From a phage: a DNA stretch of 64,000 nucleotides. Both the position numbers and the translations under genes were made by a program. Shown here in pieces: positions 6,906 through 44,955 of this stretch. The notes under the pieces were generated by a model. The model did not search any database. It worked only from the letters and a program-made list of their open reading frames with translations, and was not told the origin of the DNA. Location of the stretch: sequence record OZ346187.1; one strand, given 5' to 3'. Within the stretch, counting starts at the first letter, position 1. Every line of letters starts with the position of its first letter.

Positions 6906-8651
6906 ATGGCGCAAGACATGACAAGCTTTGAGCAGGCGGTAGATCAAGTAATTGTTGATTCTGAACGTTTGCACCTGATTGTCAACGGTAACGCTGTGGA
7001 TGAAGTTGTCGTAGAGGATGGGACCACCATCCCTACGGTACGAAAAGCCATGCTTGACACCCTTTATTTTAAAACGCCACCGATCCCTTGGGCGTATGGT
7101 GCATCCACAACAGTTTTTAACCAGCTGTACGAGTTTAAAGGGGACACAGGCCCTCAGTGGTGGTACGCTCCCGCAGCATCAAAATCTAACCCGGTTAGAA
7201 TGCCAGCAGATCCTTCACAATCTCCAAACTGGAGATTATATACCGATTCTGCAGTAATGGCAAAATACTACGCAAAACTTAACAGTCCGAGGTTCGAAGG
7301 TGACCCGCGAGTACCTACGCCTCCAATGGACGACAAATCCGAGTCTATAGCAAACACAGAGTTTGTTGTTGACTATGTGGATAGCATATTTGAAGCCATG
7401 GAGGGAATGAAAGTTACTGTAGGGTCTTTGGTGGTAAAAGGTCTTACAGAACTTGCTAACACTATAGTTGGTGGCACACTCACCTTACATGGGCCTGTTA
7501 ATGGAGCAGATTCTACTGCACGCTTCAGGAACCTAATCCTCACGGCAAATACTTCTACACTTACTTTTGCGTGGAGTGATCCTAAGCATGCAGACTGGAG
7601 AAGCACAGAGCTGCAACCTCATGAAGTGTCCACCCACAGGGTTATAGCTGACACTATAACTTCTGGGAAACCAGTGGCTAATAATAACGATGTGCATTTT
7701 GATGGTCTAGGTAATAACTTTTTTGACTACGTGTACATTCGTGGTAATGCCATGAAGGCAGCAACCGAACCGACATTGCAGGTAGATGGAACCACCAGGG
7801 TTAAGAACCTTGAGGTGACAGGCACTGTTACAGGGATAACCTACTCTGTCGATGGCACCATGATTTACCCTAGCTATATTGAAAGCACGGGGGACGCATT
7901 AATAAATGGTGATTTAGAAGTTGGCGGATCTGTAGTTATTCGAGGTACAGTCTCTATCCAAAACATAGCTCTGAATACCCTAAGAGTCAATGAGCGTGCA
8001 ACTTTTGAAGGGGAAGGGCTTACAGCCAACAAAGGTGTAATTACCGAGCTGACAACCACTACTTTAACTGCAACAACTGCAAACTCTGAAAACTGCAACG
8101 TTACCAGAAACTTGCAGGTAAATGGAGATGTTAGTTTAAACGCAGCAGGGACGGGCACCACCTACCTTCACAACCTTGAAATATCCGGCACAGTGACTGG
8201 GTGGCTGCCAGACTTCTCTAATGTCAACTTTGTTTGTAATGGCATTAACTCCAGTGGCAAGATAACCACCTCTCAAGAAATTGAGGCGGGTAAAACCATT
8301 ACTGCCCCTACTTTCCACGCAGGAAAGGTAGATTTTGATTTAGAGGAGGTTGACGCGTCCAGTGGGACATGGACACCTAACGGGCAGGCCAGTATGTATG
8401 TTGTCCACGCGAAAGGGGATTTTACAATAGGACAATGGCCTGGTACATCAGCGGAAGATAAACCTTATCCATTCACTGCGGTTATCTATGTCATTCAGGA
8501 TGCTGTAGGTCACAACGTGACTTTGCACGATAAGTATGCTATCCTGTCGGCAACGCCTGTTATTAATAACAAGGCTAATAGTGTTACCTTGCTGCAATTA
8601 ACATATTGTGGTGTTGGTGATATCGTAGACGTAGTAATTGCACAACGTTAA
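6906..8651 (+). CDS. putative tail fibre/tailspike protein (581 aa)
   Basis: AAGGAGA RBS; repeated (L)E(V/I)(T/S)GTVTG-type motifs and Thr/Asn/Gly-rich repeats typical of fibrous proteins. Confidence 0.55.
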   Translation: MAQDMTSFEQAVDQVIVDSERLHLIVNGNAVDEVVVEDGTTIPTVRKAMLDTLYFKTPPIPWAYGASTTVFNQLYEFKGDTGPQWWYAPAASKSNPVRMPADPSQSPNWRLYTDSAVMAKYYAKLNSPRFEGDPRVPTPPMDDKSESIANTEFVVDYVDSIFEAMEGMKVTVGSLVVKGLTELANTIVGGTLTLHGPVNGADSTARFRNLILTANTSTLTFAWSDPKHADWRSTELQPHEVSTHRVIADTITSGKPVANNNDVHFDGLGNNFFDYVYIRGNAMKAATEPTLQVDGTTRVKNLEVTGTVTGITYSVDGTMIYPSYIESTGDALINGDLEVGGSVVIRGTVSIQNIALNTLRVNERATFEGEGLTANKGVITELTTTTLTATTANSENCNVTRNLQVNGDVSLNAAGTGTTYLHNLEISGTVTGWLPDFSNVNFVCNGINSSGKITTSQEIEAGKTITAPTFHAGKVDFDLEEVDASSGTWTPNGQASMYVVHAKGDFTIGQWPGTSAEDKPYPFTAVIYVIQDAVGHNVTLHDKYAILSATPVINNKANSVTLLQLTYCGVGDIVDVVIAQR

Positions 8652-33592: not shown

Positions 33593-34357
33593 TTGAAATT
33601 CATCTACAAAGAACACTACCACAAAGGTGTTGTGTGGAGTCTATTTGACGGGTCTGGTGGTGCAGTTATTGACTGGGCAAAAGCTGGGTACCTGTGCCTG
33701 TGCTTTAATGCAGAAGGTGCTGACCACGGCAGTTATGCAGAGGTGATAACCGATCATCCTAACATTCACTATGTGGATTATTGGATTGACCCATGGTTCC
33801 CTCAGGAAACTTTTTGCATGTATCCAGCTCCAGACTTTATTCTTGCATTTCCTCCGTGCACGCATTTAGCGGTATCAGGTGCTGCACATTTTAAGAAAAA
33901 GCTGGCTAAGGATCCTTTGATCCAAATTAATGCTGTAAAGGATGCTCGGGTTGCGGAAGAGTTGGGAGAGATTTACGATTGCCCGTGGCATGTAGAGAAT
34001 CCTGTAGGGGTTATGTCCACACTGTGGCGAAAACCTGATTACCGTTTTCATCCTTCGGATTATGGTGGGTATTTACCGGAGGATGATGTAAACCCCTGGT
34101 TTCCTGAATTTATAGCTCCACGTGATGCCTACCCAAAAATAACTTGCGGCTGGATAGGCAATGGATTTATAATCCCGGCCACAAAACCTGTCCCGCAAAT
34201 AGTTGACGCGGTTAGCGGGTATTCCATGCAACACGCCAAGCTGGGTGGAAAGAGTGCAAGAACGAAGATGATCCGAAGCCTCACGCCACGTGGCTGGGCA
34301 AAAGCCGTATTCTTAGCAAACGAGCCTGTAGTAAGGAGCAGAATTAATGGGAAGTAA
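33593..34357 (+). CDS. DNA cytosine-5 methyltransferase-like protein (254 aa)
   Basis: Probable TTG start at 33593 after AGGAGA; motif I-like LFDGSGG, catalytic Pro-Cys in AFPPCTHLAVSG, motif VI-like HVENPVG; short, target-recognition region unclear. Confidence 0.45.
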   Translation: MKFIYKEHYHKGVVWSLFDGSGGAVIDWAKAGYLCLCFNAEGADHGSYAEVITDHPNIHYVDYWIDPWFPQETFCMYPAPDFILAFPPCTHLAVSGAAHFKKKLAKDPLIQINAVKDARVAEELGEIYDCPWHVENPVGVMSTLWRKPDYRFHPSDYGGYLPEDDVNPWFPEFIAPRDAYPKITCGWIGNGFIIPATKPVPQIVDAVSGYSMQHAKLGGKSARTKMIRSLTPRGWAKAVFLANEPVVRSRINGK

Positions 34358-36425
34358 ATTTATGGCATCTGCATACAACCGTTTCGGTGAGCCAAACCCG
34401 AAAGCAATTAAGTATAAAAGTGGGGGAAGTGTGAAACGAGACTATCGTGATGAAAAAGAGGTTGAAACTGTAGAGACTGTTTTAGAAAATACTAAAATCG
34501 TCCCTGTCCCACAACAAAATATCGGTCTGATGGCTGCACAATATTTTGGTGTGCGATCAGCATTGTCCCAAGAAGACGGTGTGACAGTCACTGCAACATA
34601 TTTCCCATATTACGACCGATACGGAAATCTGTCCGGTTTCAAAAAGCGTGACTGGACTATTCCTAAAGAACAAAGGGGCCACTTCTCCGTTGTTGGCATA
34701 GTAAAGGCCAACTCCCAGATGTTTGGTCAAAAGCTGTGTGCATCTTCCAACAACCGTAAGCAGATTAACGTTTGTGAGGGAGAAGGTGATGTTATTGCAG
34801 CATGGCAGGCTGCATATCAGATACAAGTAAAAGGGATTCTCACCAACGCTAAAGCCCCGGCAAAGGTGAAGCAGTGGGCTAAAGAGGTCCAGGACGGGAT
34901 CGACGCAGTTATCAACGGTGGTGATCTGGCAGGAAAACCCTGCCTGCCTTTTGTTGGAATTAACTGTGGATGTGCAAACGCAGTAGATACTTTTGCAAAC
35001 AATGAGAAGTTTATCCGTAGCTATGGAACAGTTGTGCTGGCAATGGATAACGATGCAGCTAACGAGGTAGAGAAGCAAAAACACGTCATTAAAGGTGTTG
35101 AGGCCACGCACAATATCGCAGCATTTTTGATGGCTGATAACGTTTACCACGTAGAATACCCTGGTGAAGTAAATGACCCTGACGGGGTAAAAGATATCCG
35201 TGACATGCTGAAGGCTAAAAAGCTGGAAGATATTGTCAACATGTTCCGGCACCCTGTTAAATATGTGCCTGATGCTGTGTCGGATTTAGAAGACTTCTCT
35301 ATCGAGTCTTTGCGGAAAAAGACTTCCAACGGGGTAGATATCAGCGCAGAGTTCCCAAAACTGCAAAAAATGCTAAAAGGCTTGCACAAAGGGACACTCG
35401 TAATGCTTACAGGGCCATCAGGGGGCGGTAAAACAACTGTAGCTAAAAAACTGGAACATTGTATTGCAAGATACCTAATGGACCCGACATGCCCGAAGGC
35501 TGATGACTATGAAGAGGATGATCGTCTATGTATGATCCATCTTGAGGAGGACCCAGAGGAAGCAATTAACTCCTTGTATGCAAACCAGTTAGGGTTTGAT
35601 GTTAAAGAGTTTGTTGAAGATCCTAGCCAGTTTTTAACTGATCAAGAACACGCAGAGATTCACCAATCATGGGCAAAAGCTGGAAAAATCAAAGTGTTCA
35701 AACATTTCGGATCTATTCCGGTGGACGAGTTGATTACCAAGCTTAAGCAAATGGTTTGCCTGTACCATTGCCGTTATATTGTGCTGGATCACCTATCCAT
35801 GGTAATTTCAGGGCTTAATGTTAAGGATGAGCGAAAAGAACTGGACATGGCTATGACTCAGCTGGCTGCGTTTTGTAAGCAGTTTAACGTGTTTATCTTG
35901 GTGATCGCTCACCTCAAACGTACAGAGATTGTGCCTCCTAAGGACAAGGATGGTAACCCGTTACCTTTCTGGTATCCTGTGCGAAAAGAGAATTTGCGAG
36001 GATCGGCGGGGCTTGAACAGTTGAGTTGGGTAGTCATAGGTGTCGAGGCCGAAGAAATGGTGGATCGTTCTCGTGGACGTGTCCGTCTGGTAGGTCTTAA
36101 AAACCGTCCAGCAAAAACTCTAGGTATTGCTGACACTTTGGTTATGGACCCGCACACAGGTAAGTTCCATGATGCCAGTAATTGGTACTGGGACAAAGAA
36201 ATGCAAATGTTTACAGACGGAGAAGGTGGGGAGGTTGTTTGGAGACCTCAGGCTATGTTTGAGGATCAGGAGCATGCAGTTGTAGAAACACCTATGGGCA
36301 AGGTTGTGGCTGATAAGGTTGTAACTCCTACTGTTAAGCCTGTTGACACGCAGGAAGACCTCCAGTACGATGATCCATCCTCTGACCCGGTCCCTGGTTT
36401 TGAGGATGATGAAACGCCTTTTTAA
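34347..36425 (+). CDS. DNA primase-helicase (Toprim + P-loop helicase) (692 aa)
   Basis: Toprim-like CEGEGD and VLAMDNDAANE; Walker A LTGPSGGGKTT, Walker B IVLDHLS; acidic C-terminus ...FEDDETPF. Confidence 0.75.
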   Translation: MGSKFMASAYNRFGEPNPKAIKYKSGGSVKRDYRDEKEVETVETVLENTKIVPVPQQNIGLMAAQYFGVRSALSQEDGVTVTATYFPYYDRYGNLSGFKKRDWTIPKEQRGHFSVVGIVKANSQMFGQKLCASSNNRKQINVCEGEGDVIAAWQAAYQIQVKGILTNAKAPAKVKQWAKEVQDGIDAVINGGDLAGKPCLPFVGINCGCANAVDTFANNEKFIRSYGTVVLAMDNDAANEVEKQKHVIKGVEATHNIAAFLMADNVYHVEYPGEVNDPDGVKDIRDMLKAKKLEDIVNMFRHPVKYVPDAVSDLEDFSIESLRKKTSNGVDISAEFPKLQKMLKGLHKGTLVMLTGPSGGGKTTVAKKLEHCIARYLMDPTCPKADDYEEDDRLCMIHLEEDPEEAINSLYANQLGFDVKEFVEDPSQFLTDQEHAEIHQSWAKAGKIKVFKHFGSIPVDELITKLKQMVCLYHCRYIVLDHLSMVISGLNVKDERKELDMAMTQLAAFCKQFNVFILVIAHLKRTEIVPPKDKDGNPLPFWYPVRKENLRGSAGLEQLSWVVIGVEAEEMVDRSRGRVRLVGLKNRPAKTLGIADTLVMDPHTGKFHDASNWYWDKEMQMFTDGEGGEVVWRPQAMFEDQEHAVVETPMGKVVADKVVTPTVKPVDTQEDLQYDDPSSDPVPGFEDDETPF

Positions 36426-36487: not shown

Positions 36488-39400
36488 ATGAGTATGTGGA
36501 ATTTTGACTTTGAGGCCTCAGGTCTTCTGGACGAGGAAGATCTTTACTACCATTGTGGCCTGTTTAAAGAGTTGAATAAAAATAATTTTATGTTGTTTTT
36601 GCCTATCAATGATAGATCTCATTACAGTGAAGAGGAGGTTGAAAAAGCAAAACAATTTATGCTGGCAAAGCAAGATATCTATCCTAGCTGCTCTGTCCGT
36701 ATTGCGGATTTCAGCCAGCTTGAATGGTGGTTAACCGGGAACTCCGATTGGTCACCCACATCATTAAGTTGTCACAACTGTTTTAGTTATGACTTTATCT
36801 TGATGGAGAAGCTGTCTGGTATTCATTTTGATATGTTCCGTGATCCCAAGTGTATGGGGACAATCAATAATCATCAGGTGAACCTGTTCGACACTCTGCC
36901 AATGAGTCGTATACTATGGCCCGACAGACCGTTACCTAAAGGATGCCCTGATTCTGTATACAATCCTGTTACAAAACGTATGCAGCAGGTAGGTCCTCAT
37001 GGCCTAATGGCGTGGGGGTACGCTTTAGGAAACCAGAAGGTTAAAATTGATGACTGGAGAAATTTACCTCTGTGGAAGTATGTTGATCGTGTATTCGAGG
37101 ACGTTATCATCCAGGAGCTGCTCTGGAAAGAGCTGGTAGCGGAATCAAAAGGTGTATTCTACGGCAAATCTGACATGCAGAACTTTATGTACGATCCAGC
37201 CAAAGAGAAGCCGAAAGGGTTCAAGAAGATTACCTGGAAGAATGCATTACGCCGAGGCATGCTGCAGCACTTCCTGATGGAGCTGCAGGCCCGTCAGGGT
37301 GTATACTTCGACATAGATGGAGCTATTGCTTTACGTGACCGTTGCGATGCGTGGATGAAAGAAATCGCTGATCGTGTTGAACCACAACTACCTTTAAAAG
37401 AGCTGTCAATGTCTCAGCGGCCCAAGTTCCCTGAAAAGCCGTTTAACCAAGACGGGACAATCTCTAATAATGGTTGGAAATGGTTAAAAGATAAGCTTGG
37501 CTATCCTGTAGACATGAGTGCTTTAGAGTTCAAAGCCCCGCCTAAGCGAGCATTTACCTCTACAGGAGATGTCAGCAAGATGGGGATAAAATGGTGTGAA
37601 GAGATGGGCTGCAAAGACCCCGATAAGATGGCTGATTTCTTGAGAGGCTATATTAAGGGCACCTCCACACCACAACCCTTACCTAAAGAGCTGATGGATC
37701 AGGCAATAAGTGATCTGCAGCAGAAGCGAATGCCTGACTGCAAGATACCTATGAAAATCAGCAATCAGGACGACATCAAGCGATACCTAATCAGTGCTGG
37801 TTGGCTCCCAACAATGTGGAGAACTAAAGATGTAACTAAAGACAGCAAGAAGAAAGCTTTACCTGATGCAGATGTTGATGCACGAGTATATGCATATATG
37901 GACGAGCTTTTGGAGTCAGAGTATTGTGACCTAATTATCAACTTCTGGAACAAAACTGATGCTAAGTTCCAGACAACCGTGCACAAGTTCCGAAGCTTTC
38001 CTAACTCCGAAAGGATTAAAAAGGAAGTATTCGGGAAAATACGTAGAAAAGCCAGGGCACTTATTACTTCTCCGCAACTGAAAGATACGTTTGGACACCT
38101 ATGCCCAAATCTTGAAAAATTGAACGGAGAGATGGCTAAAGATATCGTCTTGTGGTTATCATTGCGAAACCGCAGATCGGTCCTTGATCCAATCAAGGAG
38201 GATAAGGTTGATACTGGTCTTCTTAATCACCCACGTTTGAAGATTGACCATAAGCTTCCTGCTAAAAGCTCTGGATTAACAAACACTTCCAGACAGAAAC
38301 ACAGTATTTGTGCAAACATGCCTAAACCATCTCCTAAAGTGGTTATGGGTAAAGAGATGCGTAGTCTGTGGGGTGTTCCTCCGGGATACTTTGAGATCGG
38401 TATTGACGGGTCCAACTTAGAGCAGCTTATCGGGGCTTGGGGTGCCTTTGAGTTCGACAACGGCCTGTATTATGATGTTGTAAGTAATGGCGATGCACAC
38501 TGTTATTCAGGAGATACACAAATTCTCACGGAGAAAGGGTGGGTGAGGTTTGAAGATCTTGATCCGGGAACACAAGTGTTCCAGTACGATCACAACACCT
38601 CGTCAATGAACCTTGTTACTCCATTAAATTACGTTAAGCGTAGTTATTGTGGGGATATGTATCATTTCCACAACAGTAGTGTGGATTTTATGGTTACAGA
38701 TCAACACAGGATGCTGACTGTGGATCACAGAAGCAATAAATTGTTTGAAGATTTGGCAAAAGACCTGAAAGCAGGTAAAGGGTCTAATTCAGGAAGAAGG
38801 TTTATCCATGCGGCAGAGTTTTATGGGAATACAACCTTATCTCCTGCCCAGGTTAATTTGCTTATTGCTATTCACGATGATGGGCACTTGCATACAAATA
38901 AGGACGGCAGCATCGTGTGCAGGATTCAGGTCGGAAAGGGAAGAAAAGTTGCAACGCTTTTAGATACTTTTTCTGCTCTAAGCCTTAGTTATGTAGAGCA
39001 GAGCGGGAAAACCACAAAAGGGGGCTTACTGGCGAGAAGGTTCCAATTCCACGTTCCGTCCTGGGTATTTGAGTTTTTGGACAACAATAAGGATTTCACC
39101 TATAACCTGATGAACCTTGATAAAGAATCTAAAAACCTGTTTATAGCTTCTTTATCTAACTGGGACGGGTGGGTATCTTCCGAAGGTGGAAAGGTTGCTT
39201 ACTACTCCCAGGCCGAGTGCAGGAAGAAATCTGTAGAGGTGGTGTCTGCGCTGGCTACTCAGTGTGGTTTACGGAATAATACGGTGGCGATTCACAAAAA
39301 AGGTCGTGCCGTGCAGCACAGAATCACAATTGGTAGCAAACAGAGAGCAGGGTTGCTGACACTATCTAAAGAGTCTGTCGAGGTGAGCGGTTCTTTGGTT

Positions 39401-39886
39401 TATTGCGTTACCGTCCCTTCTGGAGCAATCATTGTGAGAAGGAATGGTAAAGTGGCAGTGTGCGGTAACTGTAATAACGCCAAAGCTTACTCTTCTGTAG
39501 CAGGCAAGGAGATTTCCCGTAACGATGGTAAACCTATCACGTATGGGGTTATGTATGGGGCACAAAAAGATAAAGTTGCAGATATGCTGGACATCTCCCC
39601 AGAGTTGGGACAAAGGGTAATCGATGCACTCTGGGATGCCAACCCAGGTCTTAAGGGGCGCAAAGAGGATCTGGAGAAATTCTGGGAAGCAACAGGTAAG
39701 AAGTTTATCTACTCTTTTGATGGTCATGCTATCTGGACCCGATCTAAACACTCTTTACTTAATGCATACCAACAAAATGGCGGTGCATCGTTGTGTGACT
39801 TAGTTGGAATACTCATGCACCACCAGATGGTGAAGCGTGGGTGGTACGATGAAGGTGTTCGTCGTATTATTTATTACCATAAATAA
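36488..39886 (+). CDS. family A (Pol I/T7-like) DNA polymerase with 3'-5' exonuclease domain, interrupted by an intein (1132 aa)
   Basis: Exo I-like NFDFEASGL at the N-terminus; motif A-like IDGSNLEQL followed by GDAH; motif B-like RNDGKPITYGVMYG after the insertion. Confidence 0.85.
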   Translation: MSMWNFDFEASGLLDEEDLYYHCGLFKELNKNNFMLFLPINDRSHYSEEEVEKAKQFMLAKQDIYPSCSVRIADFSQLEWWLTGNSDWSPTSLSCHNCFSYDFILMEKLSGIHFDMFRDPKCMGTINNHQVNLFDTLPMSRILWPDRPLPKGCPDSVYNPVTKRMQQVGPHGLMAWGYALGNQKVKIDDWRNLPLWKYVDRVFEDVIIQELLWKELVAESKGVFYGKSDMQNFMYDPAKEKPKGFKKITWKNALRRGMLQHFLMELQARQGVYFDIDGAIALRDRCDAWMKEIADRVEPQLPLKELSMSQRPKFPEKPFNQDGTISNNGWKWLKDKLGYPVDMSALEFKAPPKRAFTSTGDVSKMGIKWCEEMGCKDPDKMADFLRGYIKGTSTPQPLPKELMDQAISDLQQKRMPDCKIPMKISNQDDIKRYLISAGWLPTMWRTKDVTKDSKKKALPDADVDARVYAYMDELLESEYCDLIINFWNKTDAKFQTTVHKFRSFPNSERIKKEVFGKIRRKARALITSPQLKDTFGHLCPNLEKLNGEMAKDIVLWLSLRNRRSVLDPIKEDKVDTGLLNHPRLKIDHKLPAKSSGLTNTSRQKHSICANMPKPSPKVVMGKEMRSLWGVPPGYFEIGIDGSNLEQLIGAWGAFEFDNGLYYDVVSNGDAHCYSGDTQILTEKGWVRFEDLDPGTQVFQYDHNTSSMNLVTPLNYVKRSYCGDMYHFHNSSVDFMVTDQHRMLTVDHRSNKLFEDLAKDLKAGKGSNSGRRFIHAAEFYGNTTLSPAQVNLLIAIHDDGHLHTNKDGSIVCRIQVGKGRKVATLLDTFSALSLSYVEQSGKTTKGGLLARRFQFHVPSWVFEFLDNNKDFTYNLMNLDKESKNLFIASLSNWDGWVSSEGGKVAYYSQAECRKKSVEVVSALATQCGLRNNTVAIHKKGRAVQHRITIGSKQRAGLLTLSKESVEVSGSLVYCVTVPSGAIIVRRNGKVAVCGNCNNAKAYSSVAGKEISRNDGKPITYGVMYGAQKDKVADMLDISPELGQRVIDALWDANPGLKGRKEDLEKFWEATGKKFIYSFDGHAIWTRSKHSLLNAYQQNGGASLCDLVGILMHHQMVKRGWYDEGVRRIIYYHK
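38501..39469 (+). mobile_element. intein with LAGLIDADG-like homing endonuclease domain inserted in the DNA polymerase (323 aa)
   Basis: In-frame insertion between GDAH and motif B; starts CYSGDTQILTEKG (Hint block A), ends ...VYCVTVPSGAIIVRRNGKVAVCGN then Cys +1; internal LLIAIHDDGH and FIASLSNWDGW resemble LAGLIDADG motifs. Confidence 0.65.
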
Positions 39887-40153
39887 CATTGTGGCTTCAT
39901 AGAGTAATCTATGTCGAATAACCTCTTTAACTGCGGGAAGCCTAAACCTTATGGCAAGGTAATCCGCAACGAAGCGCTCAAAAGAGCGAACGCTCAGAGG
40001 CCATTCCGAAAGGAAGTAGACCAGCAAGTGCGGTCGAAATGGGAGGATTCCTGTGGTTGCTTATCATAGGAATATGAGATGGTCCGATCCTACGTGAAAA
40101 CGTATGGCTATGCACGTAATGGTGCGGGGTAGCTTAACGACCTACCTGAACTA

Positions 40154-40510
40154 TTGGATGAGTACCAACTTCAAGTGCCTGACACACCGAAGTATAAGAC
40201 TGTGTACACCTTCGACACAATTGAAGAACTGGAAGCATTTAAGGCAGAGCAGGAAGCCAAACTTCATGTGTTCGACGGTCATAAGTACAAAAAGGCACGC
40301 AAGGATGAGGACGGAAACGAAGTGGTTGACAGAGACGGAAACACGGTGTACGATCCTATCCTGAACGATGACGGAAAGCTTGAACTTATCTGGAGCCCTG
40401 TGGGTGAAATGGTGGTACATTGCTTCTGGCAAGCTTCTAAAATGATGGGAGTCCCGTTCCAGATCACAGGTGAATACTTGTGTGGTCGTAATTGGGGTGA
40501 TTGTCACTAA
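40154..40510 (+). CDS. hypothetical protein (118 aa)
   Basis: ORF with TTG start in track; start uncertain. Confidence 0.35.
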   Translation: MDEYQLQVPDTPKYKTVYTFDTIEELEAFKAEQEAKLHVFDGHKYKKARKDEDGNEVVDRDGNTVYDPILNDDGKLELIWSPVGEMVVHCFWQASKMMGVPFQITGEYLCGRNWGDCH

Positions 40511-40844: not shown

Positions 40845-41068
40845 CGACTTTGGTTAAAGCCACCTTTGTAGAAGAAAAGATGACAGACATGTCATTCTTT
40901 AAAGAAGGAAAGACCTACGAGGTTTATTCCGATAAAGCTCGTGCAAACAAAATGATTAAAGACGAGGAAGGGGTTGACTGGTATATCTCTCACCTGGCAA
41001 ACGGTGAGTATCATATCTACGGAACCACTTTGCTTGCCAAGTTTGTAGTTGTTGAAGAGGACCTATGA
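40841..41068 (+). CDS. small early protein, triplicated family member 2 (75 aa)
   Basis: AAGGAGA RBS; family pattern GKTYEVYSD...KDEEGVDWYISH. Confidence 0.45.
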   Translation: MTTLVKATFVEEKMTDMSFFKEGKTYEVYSDKARANKMIKDEEGVDWYISHLANGEYHIYGTTLLAKFVVVEEDL

Positions 41069-41259
41069 AAGTAAAGTATCTTGCTGAAGGTATGAATAGG
41101 TATTTTACCCTTGGTGAAGAATATTGGCCCTTTACAAACAACGGCGATGTCTACGTGAAAGATAATTTCGGCACGCCGTGGTTTCTGCACTCTAATGGGC
41201 TGGGATACTCCATTTACTGCGGTGCAGTGAACAACACAACTCTTGCAGAGTTCGTTTAG
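41065..41259 (+). CDS. small early protein, triplicated family member 3 (64 aa)
   Basis: ATG overlapping upstream stop; GEEYWPF...KDNFGTPWFLHS. Confidence 0.45.
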   Translation: MKVKYLAEGMNRYFTLGEEYWPFTNNGDVYVKDNFGTPWFLHSNGLGYSIYCGAVNNTTLAEFV

Positions 41260-41269
41260 AGGAGGTAGG

Positions 41270-41641
41270 ATGTTAGTAAAAGGTACCCACACAGTCAAAC
41301 AACGTATTGAAGTTGAGATTGATGATTGTGAGCTGAAGCATATTTTACGGTCATGCTCCAACGTTTTGCTCCTTAGTATTCTTCAGGAGCGAGCGGAGAA
41401 CGAGTTCTTAAATGCATTGGCAGGCCGTCCCGGTGACTTCTGTGTGCGTAAGCGTGGTGACAACAAGTCGTGGTTGTGGGAGATCGATGCCGACTGGGAT
41501 TACCACAAAAATGAGGGTATAGATGAGCCTATTCGTGAACTGACGGACAAAGAGATTCAGATGTACAATGAAGTTTGTCATTGGGCAACACGCCAACAAA
41601 TTTACCTAGACCCTGTGTGGCTGATTGAAAATAGTCGTTGA
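41270..41641 (+). CDS. hypothetical protein (123 aa)
   Basis: ATG at 41270 after GAGGAGG (track start 41243). Confidence 0.45.
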   Translation: MLVKGTHTVKQRIEVEIDDCELKHILRSCSNVLLLSILQERAENEFLNALAGRPGDFCVRKRGDNKSWLWEIDADWDYHKNEGIDEPIRELTDKEIQMYNEVCHWATRQQIYLDPVWLIENSR

Positions 41642-41666
41642 CAAGAAGTAAGGTTAGATGTAAGAT
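41638..41666 (+). promoter_or_regulatory. sigma70-like promoter (TTGACA-17-TAAGAT)
   Basis: -35 overlaps the upstream TGA stop; upstream of 41718. Confidence 0.4.
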
Positions 41667-41717
41667 ACTCCTCACAAACAGAGTATTGATTGTTAAATAA
41701 TTAAGGAGACCTCTAAG

Positions 41718-41945
41718 ATGAAAATCATGTTGAAACCAGAATGCGTTGCAAACGACCGAGCTTTTAAAGATTGCACACTTGGCGCTACTTATGAAGCAGA
41801 GTTTTGTGAGAACCCTTTGGTAAAAGCCCTTTTGGAAGAAGTACTTTATCACAAGAAGAGCTTGATGAGCTGGAAAACTCAGCACAGTGCCTTACCTTTA
41901 AAGATGATGAAGGAGACTCTGTCTGGTGCACTGTTAACGAAGTAG
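41718..41945 (+). CDS. small early protein, KP...AF(K/R)DCT family, copy 1 (75 aa)
   Basis: AAGGAGA RBS; MLKPECVANDRAFKDCTLGATYEA parallels ORF 42032-42292. Confidence 0.45.
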   Translation: MKIMLKPECVANDRAFKDCTLGATYEAEFCENPLVKALLEEVLYHKKSLMSWKTQHSALPLKMMKETLSGALLTK

Positions 41946-41971
41946 TTTTTGTAAAAACTGAACATTAATAC

Positions 41972-42000
41972 TTGACAACAGCGATAGGACCTAATACAAT
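41972..42000 (+). promoter_or_regulatory. sigma70 consensus-like promoter (TTGACA-17-TACAAT) with palindrome over the -10
   Basis: -35 41972-41977, -10 41995-42000; inverted repeat ataggacc/ggtcctat (41984-42008) brackets the -10. Confidence 0.5.
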
Positions 42001-43319: not shown

Positions 43320-43688
43320 ATGGAACAAATGAACGATCAAGAGTCGGTTGCGATGAACGAGCAAGAACAACCTCAAGAATTTTTCTTAGGGTTAAGTAAA
43401 GATCAAGTGTCTCTTTTGCTAGTGCTTTCTTCTTTCATGGGAAGACTTCAGGAGCTCACACAACAACCGGAGGCTGAACAATTATTTCAGGCTCTGCGTG
43501 AAGAAGAAAAATATCGTCGTTTGGACTATGCCTTAGGTTGGGTAGCTCAACAACGAGATATGCTGATGGCCCTCTCTGGGACCACAAGTTTTGCAATGGG
43601 CCTGTTGGCTCAAGTTCAGGACAAATTAATTCAAGCAGGGTTTGCACACACGGCAAACACTAACGAAGAACAAGGAGACAAAGAATGA
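43320..43688 (+). CDS. hypothetical protein (122 aa)
   Basis: ORF with RBS, Gln/Glu-rich. Confidence 0.45.
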   Translation: MEQMNDQESVAMNEQEQPQEFFLGLSKDQVSLLLVLSSFMGRLQELTQQPEAEQLFQALREEEKYRRLDYALGWVAQQRDMLMALSGTTSFAMGLLAQVQDKLIQAGFAHTANTNEEQGDKE

Positions 43689-44911
43689 GCGTTATTCAAC
43701 AATTCGCTAACCCGATGAATCCGCGTGAAACTGTTTTACTGGCTCACGGCATGATTAAACGCGTCAGCATCAAGCCTATCAAAGGTGCTGATCCTACAAC
43801 AGGTATTAAAACCACTGTGTGGCAAGGTAAGAAAATTGAATCCAGCCACACCATCTCTTTACTGATTTCTGAACTGGATTCCTCTGATAACCTACTTCAA
43901 GGTGGTGAAGAAGTTTGGATCAGTATGGGCGATAAGCTGCTTAAACCGGGTCATCAAGACTCTGTCTCTGTTAAAATTGATGACAAGTGGGAAACCGTAA
44001 CGCCAGGATGGATCGTAAATATCCCTTTGAAGGCAAACGAGCATAACGGTAAGACCTACTACAAAGGCTCACTGGCTAAGATGGTTAAGCTGGGTGCAGG
44101 AGAGGCTCCAGCAGCGACTCAGCAGCAAAAACAGCAACAAGGTGCACAATCACAAGGCCAGAAGCAGAAACCTCAGCAGAATGCCAATCAGGACGTTTTA
44201 CGCATCTATGGTGATGTGACTCAGATTGTTGGCAACGTGGTTACTGTAAATGACCACAAGATTGGCGAAGGTGCTATGGTTGTAACTGATGAGCAGCTTA
44301 AAGACCTGGTGGTAGGTGGTCGTGTTGCAGCCATTGTTGACAAAGACACTGGAAACATTATCAGTGGTTTCAAGGCCTATCCTCCTAAGGCAGAGAACGG
44401 CACTCAAGGCTCCGGTGGCAAGCGTAAATCCTCTTACGACCCTATCGGTGTGGAAACGGGGCATAGCATCAATGCGTTGCAGATCATCCTGGATCGCGGG
44501 TTTAAGGTAGACGACCCACTGGGCGTGGCTAAAACACTGCACGTAGTCACCATTGAGCTTAAGAAAGAGTATGCTCAAGCCACCAACCGAACTGAAGATG
44601 AAGTAGGTGCCAGTGTCGGTAATGCGGTGTTGAACGCTTGTCGCCGTATTGACAAGAAAACGAAAGTTGATGATTTTGCAGCGGCAATTACTGCAGAAGC
44701 AAAAGATGTCTTGACTAATCTGGCTGAGCCGTTGTACGATTGGATCAAGAACGGTGCTGGGTCAACTGACCATCAAGAACCTCAGGCTGCCAAACAGGAA
44801 GCAGCTCCACAGCAAAACACTGTAGACGCTCCTCCTGTAAATGATGGGGAAGATGACCCGATGGATCAGAATCCAGCACAGTACGCCTTTGATGATGACA
44901 TCCCTTTTTAA
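43685..44911 (+). CDS. ssDNA-binding-protein-like protein with SSB-type C-terminal tip (408 aa)
   Basis: Ends in DDDIPF, identical to the bacterial SSB C-terminal tip, after a Gln/Ala-rich linker; N-terminal fold not assigned. Confidence 0.5.
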   Translation: MSVIQQFANPMNPRETVLLAHGMIKRVSIKPIKGADPTTGIKTTVWQGKKIESSHTISLLISELDSSDNLLQGGEEVWISMGDKLLKPGHQDSVSVKIDDKWETVTPGWIVNIPLKANEHNGKTYYKGSLAKMVKLGAGEAPAATQQQKQQQGAQSQGQKQKPQQNANQDVLRIYGDVTQIVGNVVTVNDHKIGEGAMVVTDEQLKDLVVGGRVAAIVDKDTGNIISGFKAYPPKAENGTQGSGGKRKSSYDPIGVETGHSINALQIILDRGFKVDDPLGVAKTLHVVTIELKKEYAQATNRTEDEVGASVGNAVLNACRRIDKKTKVDDFAAAITAEAKDVLTNLAEPLYDWIKNGAGSTDHQEPQAAKQEAAPQQNTVDAPPVNDGEDDPMDQNPAQYAFDDDIPF

Positions 44912-44927
44912 CAATTAGTTAACATAG

Positions 44928-44955
44928 CCCTGCCCGAAAGGGTGGGGCATTTTTG
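44928..44955 (+). terminator. rho-independent terminator, GAAA-tetraloop hairpin (second copy)
   Basis: ccctgccc-gaaa-gggtgggg then cattttt; same core as 33548. Confidence 0.6.

Follow-up and report, generated by a model that had tools for sequence, protein, structure and literature searches.

The open reading frame at 43685-44911 of the window, by which we mean the whole 64,000-nucleotide stretch of phage DNA analysed (sequence record OZ346187.1), probably encodes the replicative SSB of this phage, a member of the phage-specific family phrog_4477 which would operate in a T7-like replisome together with a primase-helicase of the gp4 type and a polymerase of family A. The 408-amino acid product terminates in FDDDIPF, which alignment to PDB entries 1eqq and 4mz9 established to be identical to the last seven residues of E. 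coli SSB. The source phage is an rV5-like E. coli phage, and phrog_4477, whose profile matched the protein over residues 1-408 (E 2.9e-173), is a family confined to phages and without a Pfam entry, for which ssDNA binding is predicted from structural models. The initial annotation had drawn attention to two acidic tails, and both were found at exactly the coordinates and with exactly the sequences given there, the SSB-like protein ending in ...DQNPAQYAFDDDIPF, i.e. ...AFDDDIPF, and the primase-helicase in ...DPVPGFEDDETPF, i.e. ...FEDDETPF.

A phage SSB-like protein bearing the tip of the host SSB has already been published for Bas52_0087 (bas52_0087/QXV84166.1), which is practically the same protein as that of the window: 405 of the 408 residues are identical (99.3%), the three substitutions that separate the two, A369T, G388E and A401S, are all located in the tail, and D252, Y351 and FDDDIPF are all retained. 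Bas52_0087, encoded by Escherichia phage RudolfGeigy (BASEL Bas52), was described in April 2026 as an SSB-like fold made up of two OB domains and a C-terminus which is disordered and has a FDDDIPF tip like that of E. coli SSB, and was identified as the protein that triggers DRT10 (UG17), a reverse-transcriptase defence (bioRxiv 10.64898/2026.04.29.721553). According to the same study DRT10 is restrained by host ExoI, Bas52_0087 is needed for triggering and an interplay with SbcB was proposed; two escape mutants were obtained, at D252 and at Y351, both being missense mutations in the helical domain, and triggering during infection via these residues was reported for Bas52 only (bioRxiv 10.64898/2026.04.29.721553). 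That both escape mutations are missense changes in this domain is consistent with the gene being essential. By analogy, the window protein, in which D252 and Y351 are present, may also act as a trigger of DRT10. The text of the preprint contains no per-phage DRT10 data for Bas50 as compared to Bas52 (bioRxiv 10.64898/2026.04.29.721553), and it omits the primase-helicase tail, the family-wide conservation of the tip and the endonuclease-masked alleles. What is added here is that the tip appears to be under selection throughout the family, and that the helicase tail would be inherited from gp4, its match to the SSB tail being found in Vequintavirinae only.

The gene, the domains assigned to its product and the terminator that follows it are given below.

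43685..44911, + strand: SSB-like gene, 408 aa, ATG start (open reading frame call; ortholog of Bas52_0087 and member of phrog_4477)
43685..44101, + strand: OB1, residues 1-139, basic domain with an OB fold at the N-terminus, predicted ssDNA-binding core
44102..44191, + strand: Q-rich disordered linker 1, residues 140-169 (pLDDT <50; 13 Gln in 30 residues; linker of differing length in homologs)
44192..44392, + strand: OB2, small domain of predicted b1-b2-b3-alpha-b4-b5 topology, residues 170-236
44435..44770, + strand: residues 251-362, predicted to form a four-helix bundle; best-conserved domain within the family and location of both sites of DRT10 escape, D252 and Y351
44771..44908, + strand: acidic disordered C-terminal tail, residues 363-408 (pLDDT 31-45; net charge -10)
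44888..44908, + strand: tip FDDDIPF-COOH, identical to the C-terminal heptapeptide of E. coli SSB; in relatives, a homing endonuclease gene is inserted here
44927..44954, + strand: intrinsic terminator hairpin and T-run, 16 nt past the stop of the SSB-like gene (9-bp stem, 7 GC pairs)

The SSB-like nature proposed by the initial annotation is supported by the structural models, in which an OB fold of the ssDNA-binding type is predicted for the N-terminal region and is followed by a second, small OB-like domain, the latter being missing in short-form family members of 270-310 aa. The basic OB1 is combined with an acidic tail, and a second SSB was found neither in the rV5 paper, nor in the A6-1 annotation, nor by a scan of the genome with a canonical-SSB HMM (best E 0.48). 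Residues 363-408 are abundant in Q, A, P, D and E, and the disordered stretch (pLDDT <50) leads into D-D-D-[IL]-P-F at the very C-terminus, as in bacterial SSBs. The protein is thus like E. coli SSB (PF00436) in its OB core at the level of the fold, in its disordered low-complexity linker and in FDDDIPF-COOH, whereas the core is without detectable sequence homology to that of the bacterial protein, which also lacks the four-helix bundle; in the phage, this bundle and two OB folds are predicted on one polypeptide. No relevant Pfam match was obtained for the 408-aa protein or for 137 family members (SSB models 0/137), and no sequence homology was detected to the PF00436, DUF2815/gp2.5 or gp32 families, while neither sequence nor structure placed the protein in the gp2.5 (DUF2815) family. 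Whether the 408-aa protein itself or the family profile served as query, the sole match among PDB sequences was to the E. coli SSB tail, the profile aligning over the last ~25 residues only (E 0.84), through DFDDDIPF. In BFVD all relatives were labelled 'uncharacterized' and echoes of gp2.5/DUF2815 were weak (E ~0.01); in some records relatives are already labelled SSB, namely those of KpS11 and Mt1B1_P17 (gp116). A structural search with the four-helix bundle found no solved relative, and this helical domain without a known counterpart, together with a core without homology to known SSB families, argues against the SSB reading.

The tip is a family-wide trait and, judged from the alignment, appears to be under strong selection, since PF forms the terminus of 112 of the 150 family representatives, which are clusters at 50% identity (68 IPF, 23 LPF and 14 VPF), and since P407 and F408 are conserved at 95% and 96%, respectively, against a mean column identity of 16%. 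The PF terminus is spread over ~240 clusters, and the endonuclease is absent from most of these. Within the window, acidic endings in PF are confined to the SSB-like ORF and the primase-helicase among ~107 non-overlapping ORFs, and the same two ORFs alone end in this way in A6-1, the closest relative, whose complete genome contains 921 ORFs with a length of 40 aa or more. Identity to the host SSB tip reaches 12 residues in relatives, which bear EPPMDFDDDIPF.

The replication genes to which the SSB-like gene is linked are the following.

34347..36425, + strand: T7 gp4-type primase-helicase, 692 aa (phrog_239, 8e-160; DnaB_C/AAA_25; PDB chains of T7 gp4, E ~1e-15)
36399..36422, + strand: tip of the primase-helicase tail, FEDDETPF-COOH (read from the ORF; tail statistics of homologs)
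36488..39886, + strand: exon 1 of a T7-like DNA polymerase of family A; an intein occupies 38501-39469 (matches to phrog_17 and to DNA polymerase I families; alignment to T7 gp5)

The T7-like character that had been suspected of the primase-helicase tail was borne out. The protein is a gp4 homolog which matched PDB entries 1cr0, 1e0j, 1q57 and 6n7i with E values of 5.9e-16 to 2.4e-15, and its tblastn matches extend to T7 genomes themselves. An aromatic residue ends 112 of 120 homologs (99 Phe, 13 Tyr), and the near-universal acidic and aromatic ending of gp4-type proteins supports, at the level of sequence, the view that this tail is a family trait. The SSB-like gene, the primase-helicase and PolA are syntenic in each lineage examined, both long-form and short-form, and the family A polymerase is a candidate docking partner of both tails.

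From these features we infer ssDNA binding, oligomerisation and each partner contact of the 408-aa protein. The basic OB1, aided by OB2 in the long form, would cover ssDNA bared by the helicase, while the conserved four-helix bundle may allow the protein to self-associate or may provide a conserved contact with another protein. The acidic tail, 46 residues long, would act as a flexible tether for FDDDIPF-COOH, which may be a genuine docking peptide of the bacterial SSB-Ct type and which, by analogy, could dock to partners via the Phe side chain and the free carboxylate. Because the tip equals that of the host, over seven residues here and up to 12 in relatives, its main clients are in our view host SSB-interacting proteins such as ExoI/SbcB, RecQ, PriA, chi or RNase HI, which on phage ssDNA would be either recruited or competed away; the polymerase of the phage may be an additional client. 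The primase-helicase tail would represent an inherited gp4-type polymerase-docking tail, the Vequintavirinae version of which may have drifted to an x-P-F ending like that of the SSB. The hijacking of host SSB partners which the initial annotation had offered as one option is plausible, and was proposed before (bioRxiv 10.64898/2026.04.29.721553). A phage precedent is found in HK620, the SSB of which ends in NDYPPF, six bacterial-tip-like residues that are required to engage the phage partner Sak4 (PMC5928155); the HK620 protein is a distant canonical SSB homolog, however, and Sak4 is an annealase (PMC5928155).

In related phages, EndoVII-type homing endonuclease genes are inserted directly 3' of the codon for the terminal Phe. 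Four gene families unrelated to one another are affected, namely canonical phage ssb, rV5-type SSB, phi92-type SSB and gp4-type primase-helicase, and the landing of such a gene exactly on this SSB tail is unreported. The insertion overlaps and replaces the stop codon, and the resulting extension of 15-16 residues, with the consensus A-P-[IV]-G-L-Q-Y-[GA]-x-x-x-[ILV]-[HY]-x-[LIF], masks the tip, the capped form (tip plus extension) being ...DDIPFAPVGLQYGKSRIHAL. In Seunavirus KE23, and in P0213, the same extension, brought in by the endonuclease, follows the primase-helicase tip. The inserted gene belongs to phrog_1035, 'endonuclease VII' (E 5.7e-40), bas50_0089, which corresponds to 4244-4867 of L002, is annotated as 'putative homing endonuclease', and relatives of the endonuclease occur in 148 phage records. 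As compared to the window, which represents the endonuclease-free, free-tip allele, the endonuclease-positive allele L002 carries ~646 extra nt at the region 44927-44954 between flanks that are >95% identical. In genomes that are otherwise collinear and near-identical, a single site thus either contains the endonuclease ORF or is devoid of it, as is characteristic of free-standing homing endonucleases, and cleavage of the endonuclease-free allele followed by spread through repair is the putative route. In having an EndoVII/HNH gene present or absent beside a conserved coding target the arrangement is like that of T-even seg/mob and of T7 gene 2.8, which begins at the base following the gp2.5 stop; the tip lineage differs from these in that it overlaps the stop, adds 15-16 residues and meets the same peptide motif in four families. 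A junction scan of viral contigs gave 12 matches, 4 of them due to chance, and one of bacterial genomes gave 34, of which a single match (Sodalis sp. ssb) was genuine and the others were due to chance.

Readthrough of the stop codon was ruled out as a source of the extension in the window, where TAA is followed by unrelated sequence and the terminator, and neither a beta-clamp motif (QL[SD]LF) nor a PIP box fits the extension by eye. A neutral, out-of-frame by-product of the Shine-Dalgarno sequence, ATG and N-terminus of the endonuclease would account for 'GLQY', albeit not for the synonymous-biased divergence seen in endonuclease-less alleles, in which the extension remains after loss of the endonuclease. 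Extended alleles of this kind occur in Seunavirus, Mydovirus, Avunavirus and Phapecoctavirus. Tentatively, a single EndoVII-type lineage may home to the DNA of the SSB-Ct tip plus stop and have invaded at least four unrelated families, with the cap being kept under purifying selection after endonuclease loss for a function of its own (e.g. modulating or replacing tip docking) and with SSB-Ct modules (EPPMDFDDDIPF) being shuttled between genes.

Canonical SSB-Ct pockets and T7 gp2.5 both require a free Phe carboxylate. Residues that continue past the Phe, 15-16 in number, are nevertheless found in the viable phages Bas50 DrSchubert, JEP1, SSE121 and BIS47, which argues that a free carboxylate is not strictly required for growth and that a free tip is not essential.

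It is possible, though we consider it the less probable reading, that the tails follow T7 logic alone, both x-P-F endings binding one basic site on PolA and thereby coupling the replisome, with the likeness to the host tip being convergent and host proteins irrelevant. In T7 the gp5 basic patch, K587/K589/R590/R591, docks the tails of both gp2.5 and gp4, and the terminal aromatic residue is required. The phage resembles this system in having a gp4 homolog, a family A polymerase adjacent in all lineages, and acidic tails with a C-terminal aromatic residue on SSB and helicase alike. The two tails are matched in three genera of Vequintavirinae (SSB/helicase: AFDDDIPF/GFEDDETPF, MDFDDDIPF/DMDEDTPF and MDWDDDVPF/DDWDDAAPF), the F-to-W change of phiTE being common to both proteins, and Vequintavirus PolA has K-K at the position equivalent to R590/R591 as well as a nearby KGRK cluster, which lies 12-18 residues upstream and is confined to Vequintavirus. 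The shared polymerase-docking logic put forward by the initial annotation is only partly supported. Matched acidic-x-P-F tails are limited to Vequintavirinae; in the phi92-like lineage the SSB retains DFDDDIPF whereas the helicase ends in ...GSY, ...DMKF or ...GAY, and this persistence of DDDIPF alongside helicase tails that lack an acidic-PF end favours a partner of the tip that is independent of the helicase tail. Judged from the alignment, the front basic patch of gp5 is mostly missing from the phage polymerases, KWKRRW aligning opposite GKKF in Vequintavirus PolA and GK[KTQ]Y in the short-form lineage. The T7 tails themselves end in D-x-D-F (gp2.5 ...DEDGDF, gp4 ...SNDTDF) as opposed to I/T-P-F, and the core of gp2.5/DUF2815 is unrelated to that of the phage SSB. 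Moreover, an identity of 12 residues to the host tip exceeds what convergence on 'acidic plus Phe' would need, and the viability of masked-tip phages is at odds with the T7 requirement.

The viability of those phages could also mean that the tip is mainly a passenger, i.e. an SSB-Ct coding module spread by co-conversion with the homing endonuclease and kept as a harmless feature with a small contribution to fitness, which we regard as unlikely. The exact placement of the endonuclease in four unrelated gene families agrees with such a reading, as do the module EPPMDFDDDIPF plus extension being common to SSB cores that are at most 36% identical outside of it and the polymorphism of free and extended alleles within genera; it is opposed by the mostly endonuclease-free distribution of PF ends, by old extended alleles in which DDDIPF is still intact, and by the slur12-type allele, which has the endonuclease yet a stop codon right after IPF, consistent with selection for a free tip. 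Equally improbable is that the protein is not the replicative SSB but an OB-fold decoy or regulator which titrates host SSB partners (e.g. ExoI, RecQ), or a recombination mediator, acting via its mimic tip. Such a role would fit a conserved helical domain without SSB precedent, an ssDNA-binding activity that is predicted, the finding that expression of Bas52_0087 alone is non-toxic and does not trigger DRT10, and the SbcB competition proposed in the preprint (bioRxiv 10.64898/2026.04.29.721553). It is countered by the protein being the sole SSB candidate in a genome with its own helicase-primase and polymerase, by the conserved synteny with replication genes, by the bipolar layout of basic OB and acidic tail that is typical of SSBs, and by the recovery of escape mutants of the missense type only. 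A replicative SSB with a host-type docking tip is the reading that we prefer.

A phage SSB of a new family with the exact tip of its host suggests that these large lytic phages tap into the host SSB interactome or compete for it, and it is the same SSB-like protein that is sensed by the DRT10 defence; the literature already contains both points, in the form of predictions and genetics. The SSB-Ct coding sequence is identified here as a homing target and, if modules are indeed shuttled as suggested, this would explain the occurrence of host-type tips on a non-homologous phage SSB and on a helicase. The tip states present in related viable phages, free in Bas52, capped by 15 residues with the endonuclease in Bas50, and free with the endonuclease in slur12 and WalterGehring, make the requirement for a free C-terminal Phe, long assumed for SSB-Ct function, directly testable in phage.

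The source phage of the window is an rV5-like Vequintavirus, and its 408-aa SSB-like protein is 100% identical to the counterpart in Escherichia phage A6-1 and 97–99.8% identical to those in approximately 115 other records. The protein, which belongs to phrog_4477 ('unknown function') over its entire length, is labelled hypothetical, as are its relatives, in nearly all GenBank records, the exceptions being Klebsiella phage KpS11 ('ssDNA-binding domain-containing protein') and the short-form relative of Mt1B1_P17 ('single-stranded DNA-binding protein'). Searches of Pfam and of PDB sequences gave no match to it; none of 137 family members matched the relevant Pfam models, and the sole PDB match of the family profile was E. 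coli SSB, via ...DFDDDIPF alone. The N-terminal OB fold for which the initial annotation had proposed fold prediction was confidently predicted as a beta domain.

Tail-bearing genes, and domain layout of the 408-aa protein (AlphaFold2, alignment of 32 sequences)
43685–44911, + strand, SSB-like gene, 408 aa, C-terminus ...AQYAFDDDIPF and stop
34347–36425, primase-helicase, tail ...PGFEDDETPF and stop
Residues 1–139, beta domain (OB1), confident
Residues 140–169, Q-rich linker, disordered
Residues 170–236, OB2, small b1-b2-b3-alpha-b4-b5 domain, confident
Residues 237–250, linker, disordered
Residues 251–362, four-helix bundle, confident
Residues 363–408, acidic tail, disordered

An exhaustive profile search established a family of 240 cluster representatives, the commonest form of which (270–310 aa) comprises OB1, the helical domain and the tail without OB2, while the long form with OB2 is typical of Vequintavirinae. 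The domain mosaicism of the family indicates recombination between domains; in protein alignment A1, homologues P0040–P0043 are divergent from P0010–P0039 in OB1, yet near-identical in linker, OB2 and tail. At the SSB-like locus, sixteen 'Campylobacter phage' records (MG0656xx) share ~99% identity with Vequintaviruses of E. coli, and the host labels of these records look doubtful.

The SSB-like gene is located in a replication module with a Dda-like helicase, methyltransferases, the gp4-type primase-helicase and a family A polymerase (PolA), and primase-helicase, PolA and SSB-like gene occur in this order in long-form and short-form lineages alike. The rV5 genome paper lists a ligase, a polymerase and two helicases and no SSB, published Certrevirus and Septuagintavirus descriptions name none, the A6-1 annotation has no SSB entry, and a canonical-SSB HMM found nothing among the A6-1 ORFs (best E 0.48); this leaves the 408-aa protein as the sole candidate SSB of a phage with its own helicase-primase and polymerase. 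As a prediction, its assignment as an SSB is well supported and probably correct. Directly upstream, a 122-aa gene (43320–43688; phrog_7310, unknown function) has an ATGA overlap with the SSB-like start, and a 113–122-aa ORF occupies this position in every Vequintavirinae locus examined; its product may be a translationally coupled partner of the SSB-like protein. The polymerase ORF of the window contains an intein of ~323 residues (38501–39469; CYSGDTQIL...VCGN/C), which the polymerases of A6-1 and locus L028 lack, and a group I intron (39871–40106; Rfam RF00028, 64.7 bits; full extent probably ~39882–40156) that splits the polymerase gene precisely within motif C (...IIYYH / DEYQLQV), with exon 2 running from ~40157.

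Both C-terminal tails were found exactly as initially described, and the two proteins are the only ones with acidic plus PF ends among ~107 non-overlapping ORFs of the window and, with a minimum length of 40 aa, among 921 ORFs of the complete genome of A6-1. (The A6-1 ribonucleotide reductase small subunit, 40846–41994 of that genome and beyond the window, ends ...DAEEEIWEF, which is acidic and aromatic too, but of the unrelated NrdB-NrdA docking type.) A PF end is present in 112 of 150 family representatives (68 IPF, 23 LPF, 14 VPF), the remainder being mostly fragments, PW/DF variants and extended alleles; P407 and F408 are 95% and 96% conserved, against a mean column identity of 16%, and the 12-residue C-terminus of E. 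coli SSB, EPPMDFDDDIPF, occurs in several relatives. Such conservation strongly implies that the tip would serve in docking.

As to the partner, the T7 model offers one alternative, as the tails of gp2.5 (SSB; ...EEADEDGDF) and gp4 (primase-helicase; ...WSNDTDF) are reported to dock on the front basic patch of the gp5 polymerase. The primase-helicase is a true gp4 homologue (E ~1e-15 to 1cr0, 1q57 and 6n7i; tblastn reaches T7), and among 120 homologues 99 have a terminal Phe and 13 a terminal Tyr after an acidic stretch, with [DE]-x-P-F ends in close homologues of Vequintavirinae type and DF, EF or GF in gp4-like proteins of ~550 aa.

Paired tails (SSB-like; primase-helicase)
Vequintavirus: AFDDDIPF; GFEDDETPF
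Related clade: DFEDVPF; PEDEDCPF
Seunavirus: MDFDDDIPF; DMDEDTPF
Certrevirus phiTE: MDWDDDVPF; DDWDDAAPF
phi92-like short form: DFDDDIPF; ...GSY, ...DMKF or ...GAY

This comparison supports the T7-like logic initially proposed only in part: a tail grammar shared by SSB and helicase is real but lineage-specific, and conservation of the SSB tip does not depend on it, the phi92-like tails being unmatched. At the site of T7 KWKRRW, the alignment shows GKKF for Vequintavirus PolA, and GK[KTQ]Y for the short-form lineage. In our view, host SSB-interacting proteins are likelier partners of the tip than a shared site of the pure T7 type, and the phage PolA may be an extra client. A recent preprint (bioRxiv, 30 April 2026; 10.64898/2026.04.29.721553) identified Bas52_0087 as the phage factor needed for triggering the DRT10 reverse-transcriptase defence. 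It described the protein as SSB-like, with two OB domains, a disordered C-terminus and an FDDDIPF tip resembling that of E. coli SSB, located the escape substitutions (D252V, Y351C) at a 'putative oligomerization interface', and proposed an interplay with the ExoI (SbcB) of the host. Bas52, also named Escherichia phage RudolfGeigy, encodes a protein (QXV84166.1) that is 99.3% identical to ours, differing at three positions, all in the tail; both escape sites lie within the helical domain, D252 being 81% conserved across the family. The preprint thus anticipates, by prediction combined with genetics on this ortholog, both the main initial observation and the proposal of host hijacking, and the central claim is of low novelty.

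Some homologues of the SSB-like protein carry ~15 residues beyond IPF. In the L002 genome (99% identical), a 207-aa EndoVII-type ORF (phrog_1035, 5.7e-40) separates the SSB-like gene from its downstream neighbour; it lies within an insertion of ~646 nt relative to the window (L002 4225–4867) that starts in the tail codons (window ~44885–44911). The endonuclease ATG is 16 nt past the Phe codon, its Shine-Dalgarno sequence and start codon being the 'GLQY' codons (GGA TTG CAA TAT G), and the SSB frame continues past Phe to a stop 15 codons on. The window represents the endonuclease-free allele; beyond its stop codon the sequence is unrelated, and an intrinsic terminator occupies 44927–44954. In four gene families unrelated to one another, namely rV5-type SSB, canonical ssb, phi92-type SSB and gp4-type primase-helicase, the gene of an EndoVII-type homing endonuclease is inserted immediately behind the last Phe codon of an acidic-PF tail, replacing the stop codon and lengthening the protein by 15–16 residues (loci L006, L007, L008, L005 and L055, besides L002).

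Junctions (tail / extension, then stop)
Canonical ssb, phage morffagbaw: MDFDDDIPF / ASVGLQYGKHRIYAL
phi92-type SSB, Mt1B1_P17: ...IPF / APIGLQYGRNFLHCF
Primase-helicase, Seunavirus KE23: PEDMDDDTPF / APIGLQYANHAIYVL
Primase-helicase P0213: same junction

A pattern scan of viral contigs gave 12 matches, 8 of them further genuine cases, and a bacterial scan (one genome per species) gave one such case, a Sodalis sp. ssb; this ssb-like ORF of strain dw_96 (L059, NZ_JAAVUT010000028.1, ~7390–7423) ends NEPPMDFDDDIPF / APLGLQYGRNFIYAIS and stop, and is presumably on a prophage or plasmid. Among Vequintavirus-level records, ~32 carry the masking endonuclease, ~20 are of slur12 type, with TGA right after IPF and a variant endonuclease that has a remodelled N-terminus and begins 8 nt later (L027 350–976), and the rest, including the window, have none. 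The 3' end of the SSB-like gene is an endonuclease hot spot: an HNH gene overlaps the stop codon (TAATG) in Mydovirus Ro1 (L047 1686–2116), another adjoins it in Certrevirus phiTE, and in Henunavirus pEa56 one follows the terminator (L051 1877–2338); the tip stays free in slur12, Ro1 and pEa56. Similarly, T7 endonuclease gene 2.8 begins immediately behind the gene 2.5 stop, with no intervening base (L056 859–1278), and HNH gene 3.8 precedes gene 4, paralleling the association with SSB and helicase genes here.

Extended alleles without any endonuclease were found in Seunavirus SSE121, Mydovirus BIS47 and KpS11, Phapecoctavirus-type and Avunavirus-like contigs and some canonical ssb genes (L024 15183–15230, L025 7710–7757, L039, L049, L003, L032), while congeners EspYZU12, 4MG, Ro1 and 24-2-1 have free tips.

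Codon differences over the 15 extension codons of endonuclease-less alleles (both L039 pairs counted by eye)
SSE121 versus BIS47 (60% identical elsewhere): 5 synonymous, 1 non-synonymous
SSE121 versus L039: 7 synonymous, 2 non-synonymous
BIS47 versus L039: 6 synonymous, 3 non-synonymous

The mostly synonymous divergence of this small sample of three pairs in the SSB frame suggests that the cap peptide itself may be constrained; read in the former endonuclease frame, the substitutions are mostly non-synonymous. Selection on the cap peptide would account for this pattern, as would recent re-seeding of the scars from sources that bear the endonuclease. A capped allele is present in the viable BASEL laboratory phage Bas50 (DrSchubert); growth therefore does not depend on a free Phe carboxylate, and this speaks against a strict requirement of the canonical SSB-Ct or T7 type. 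As far as literature searches show, the endonuclease on the tip and the naturally capped tips are undescribed, and together they provide a direct experimental handle.
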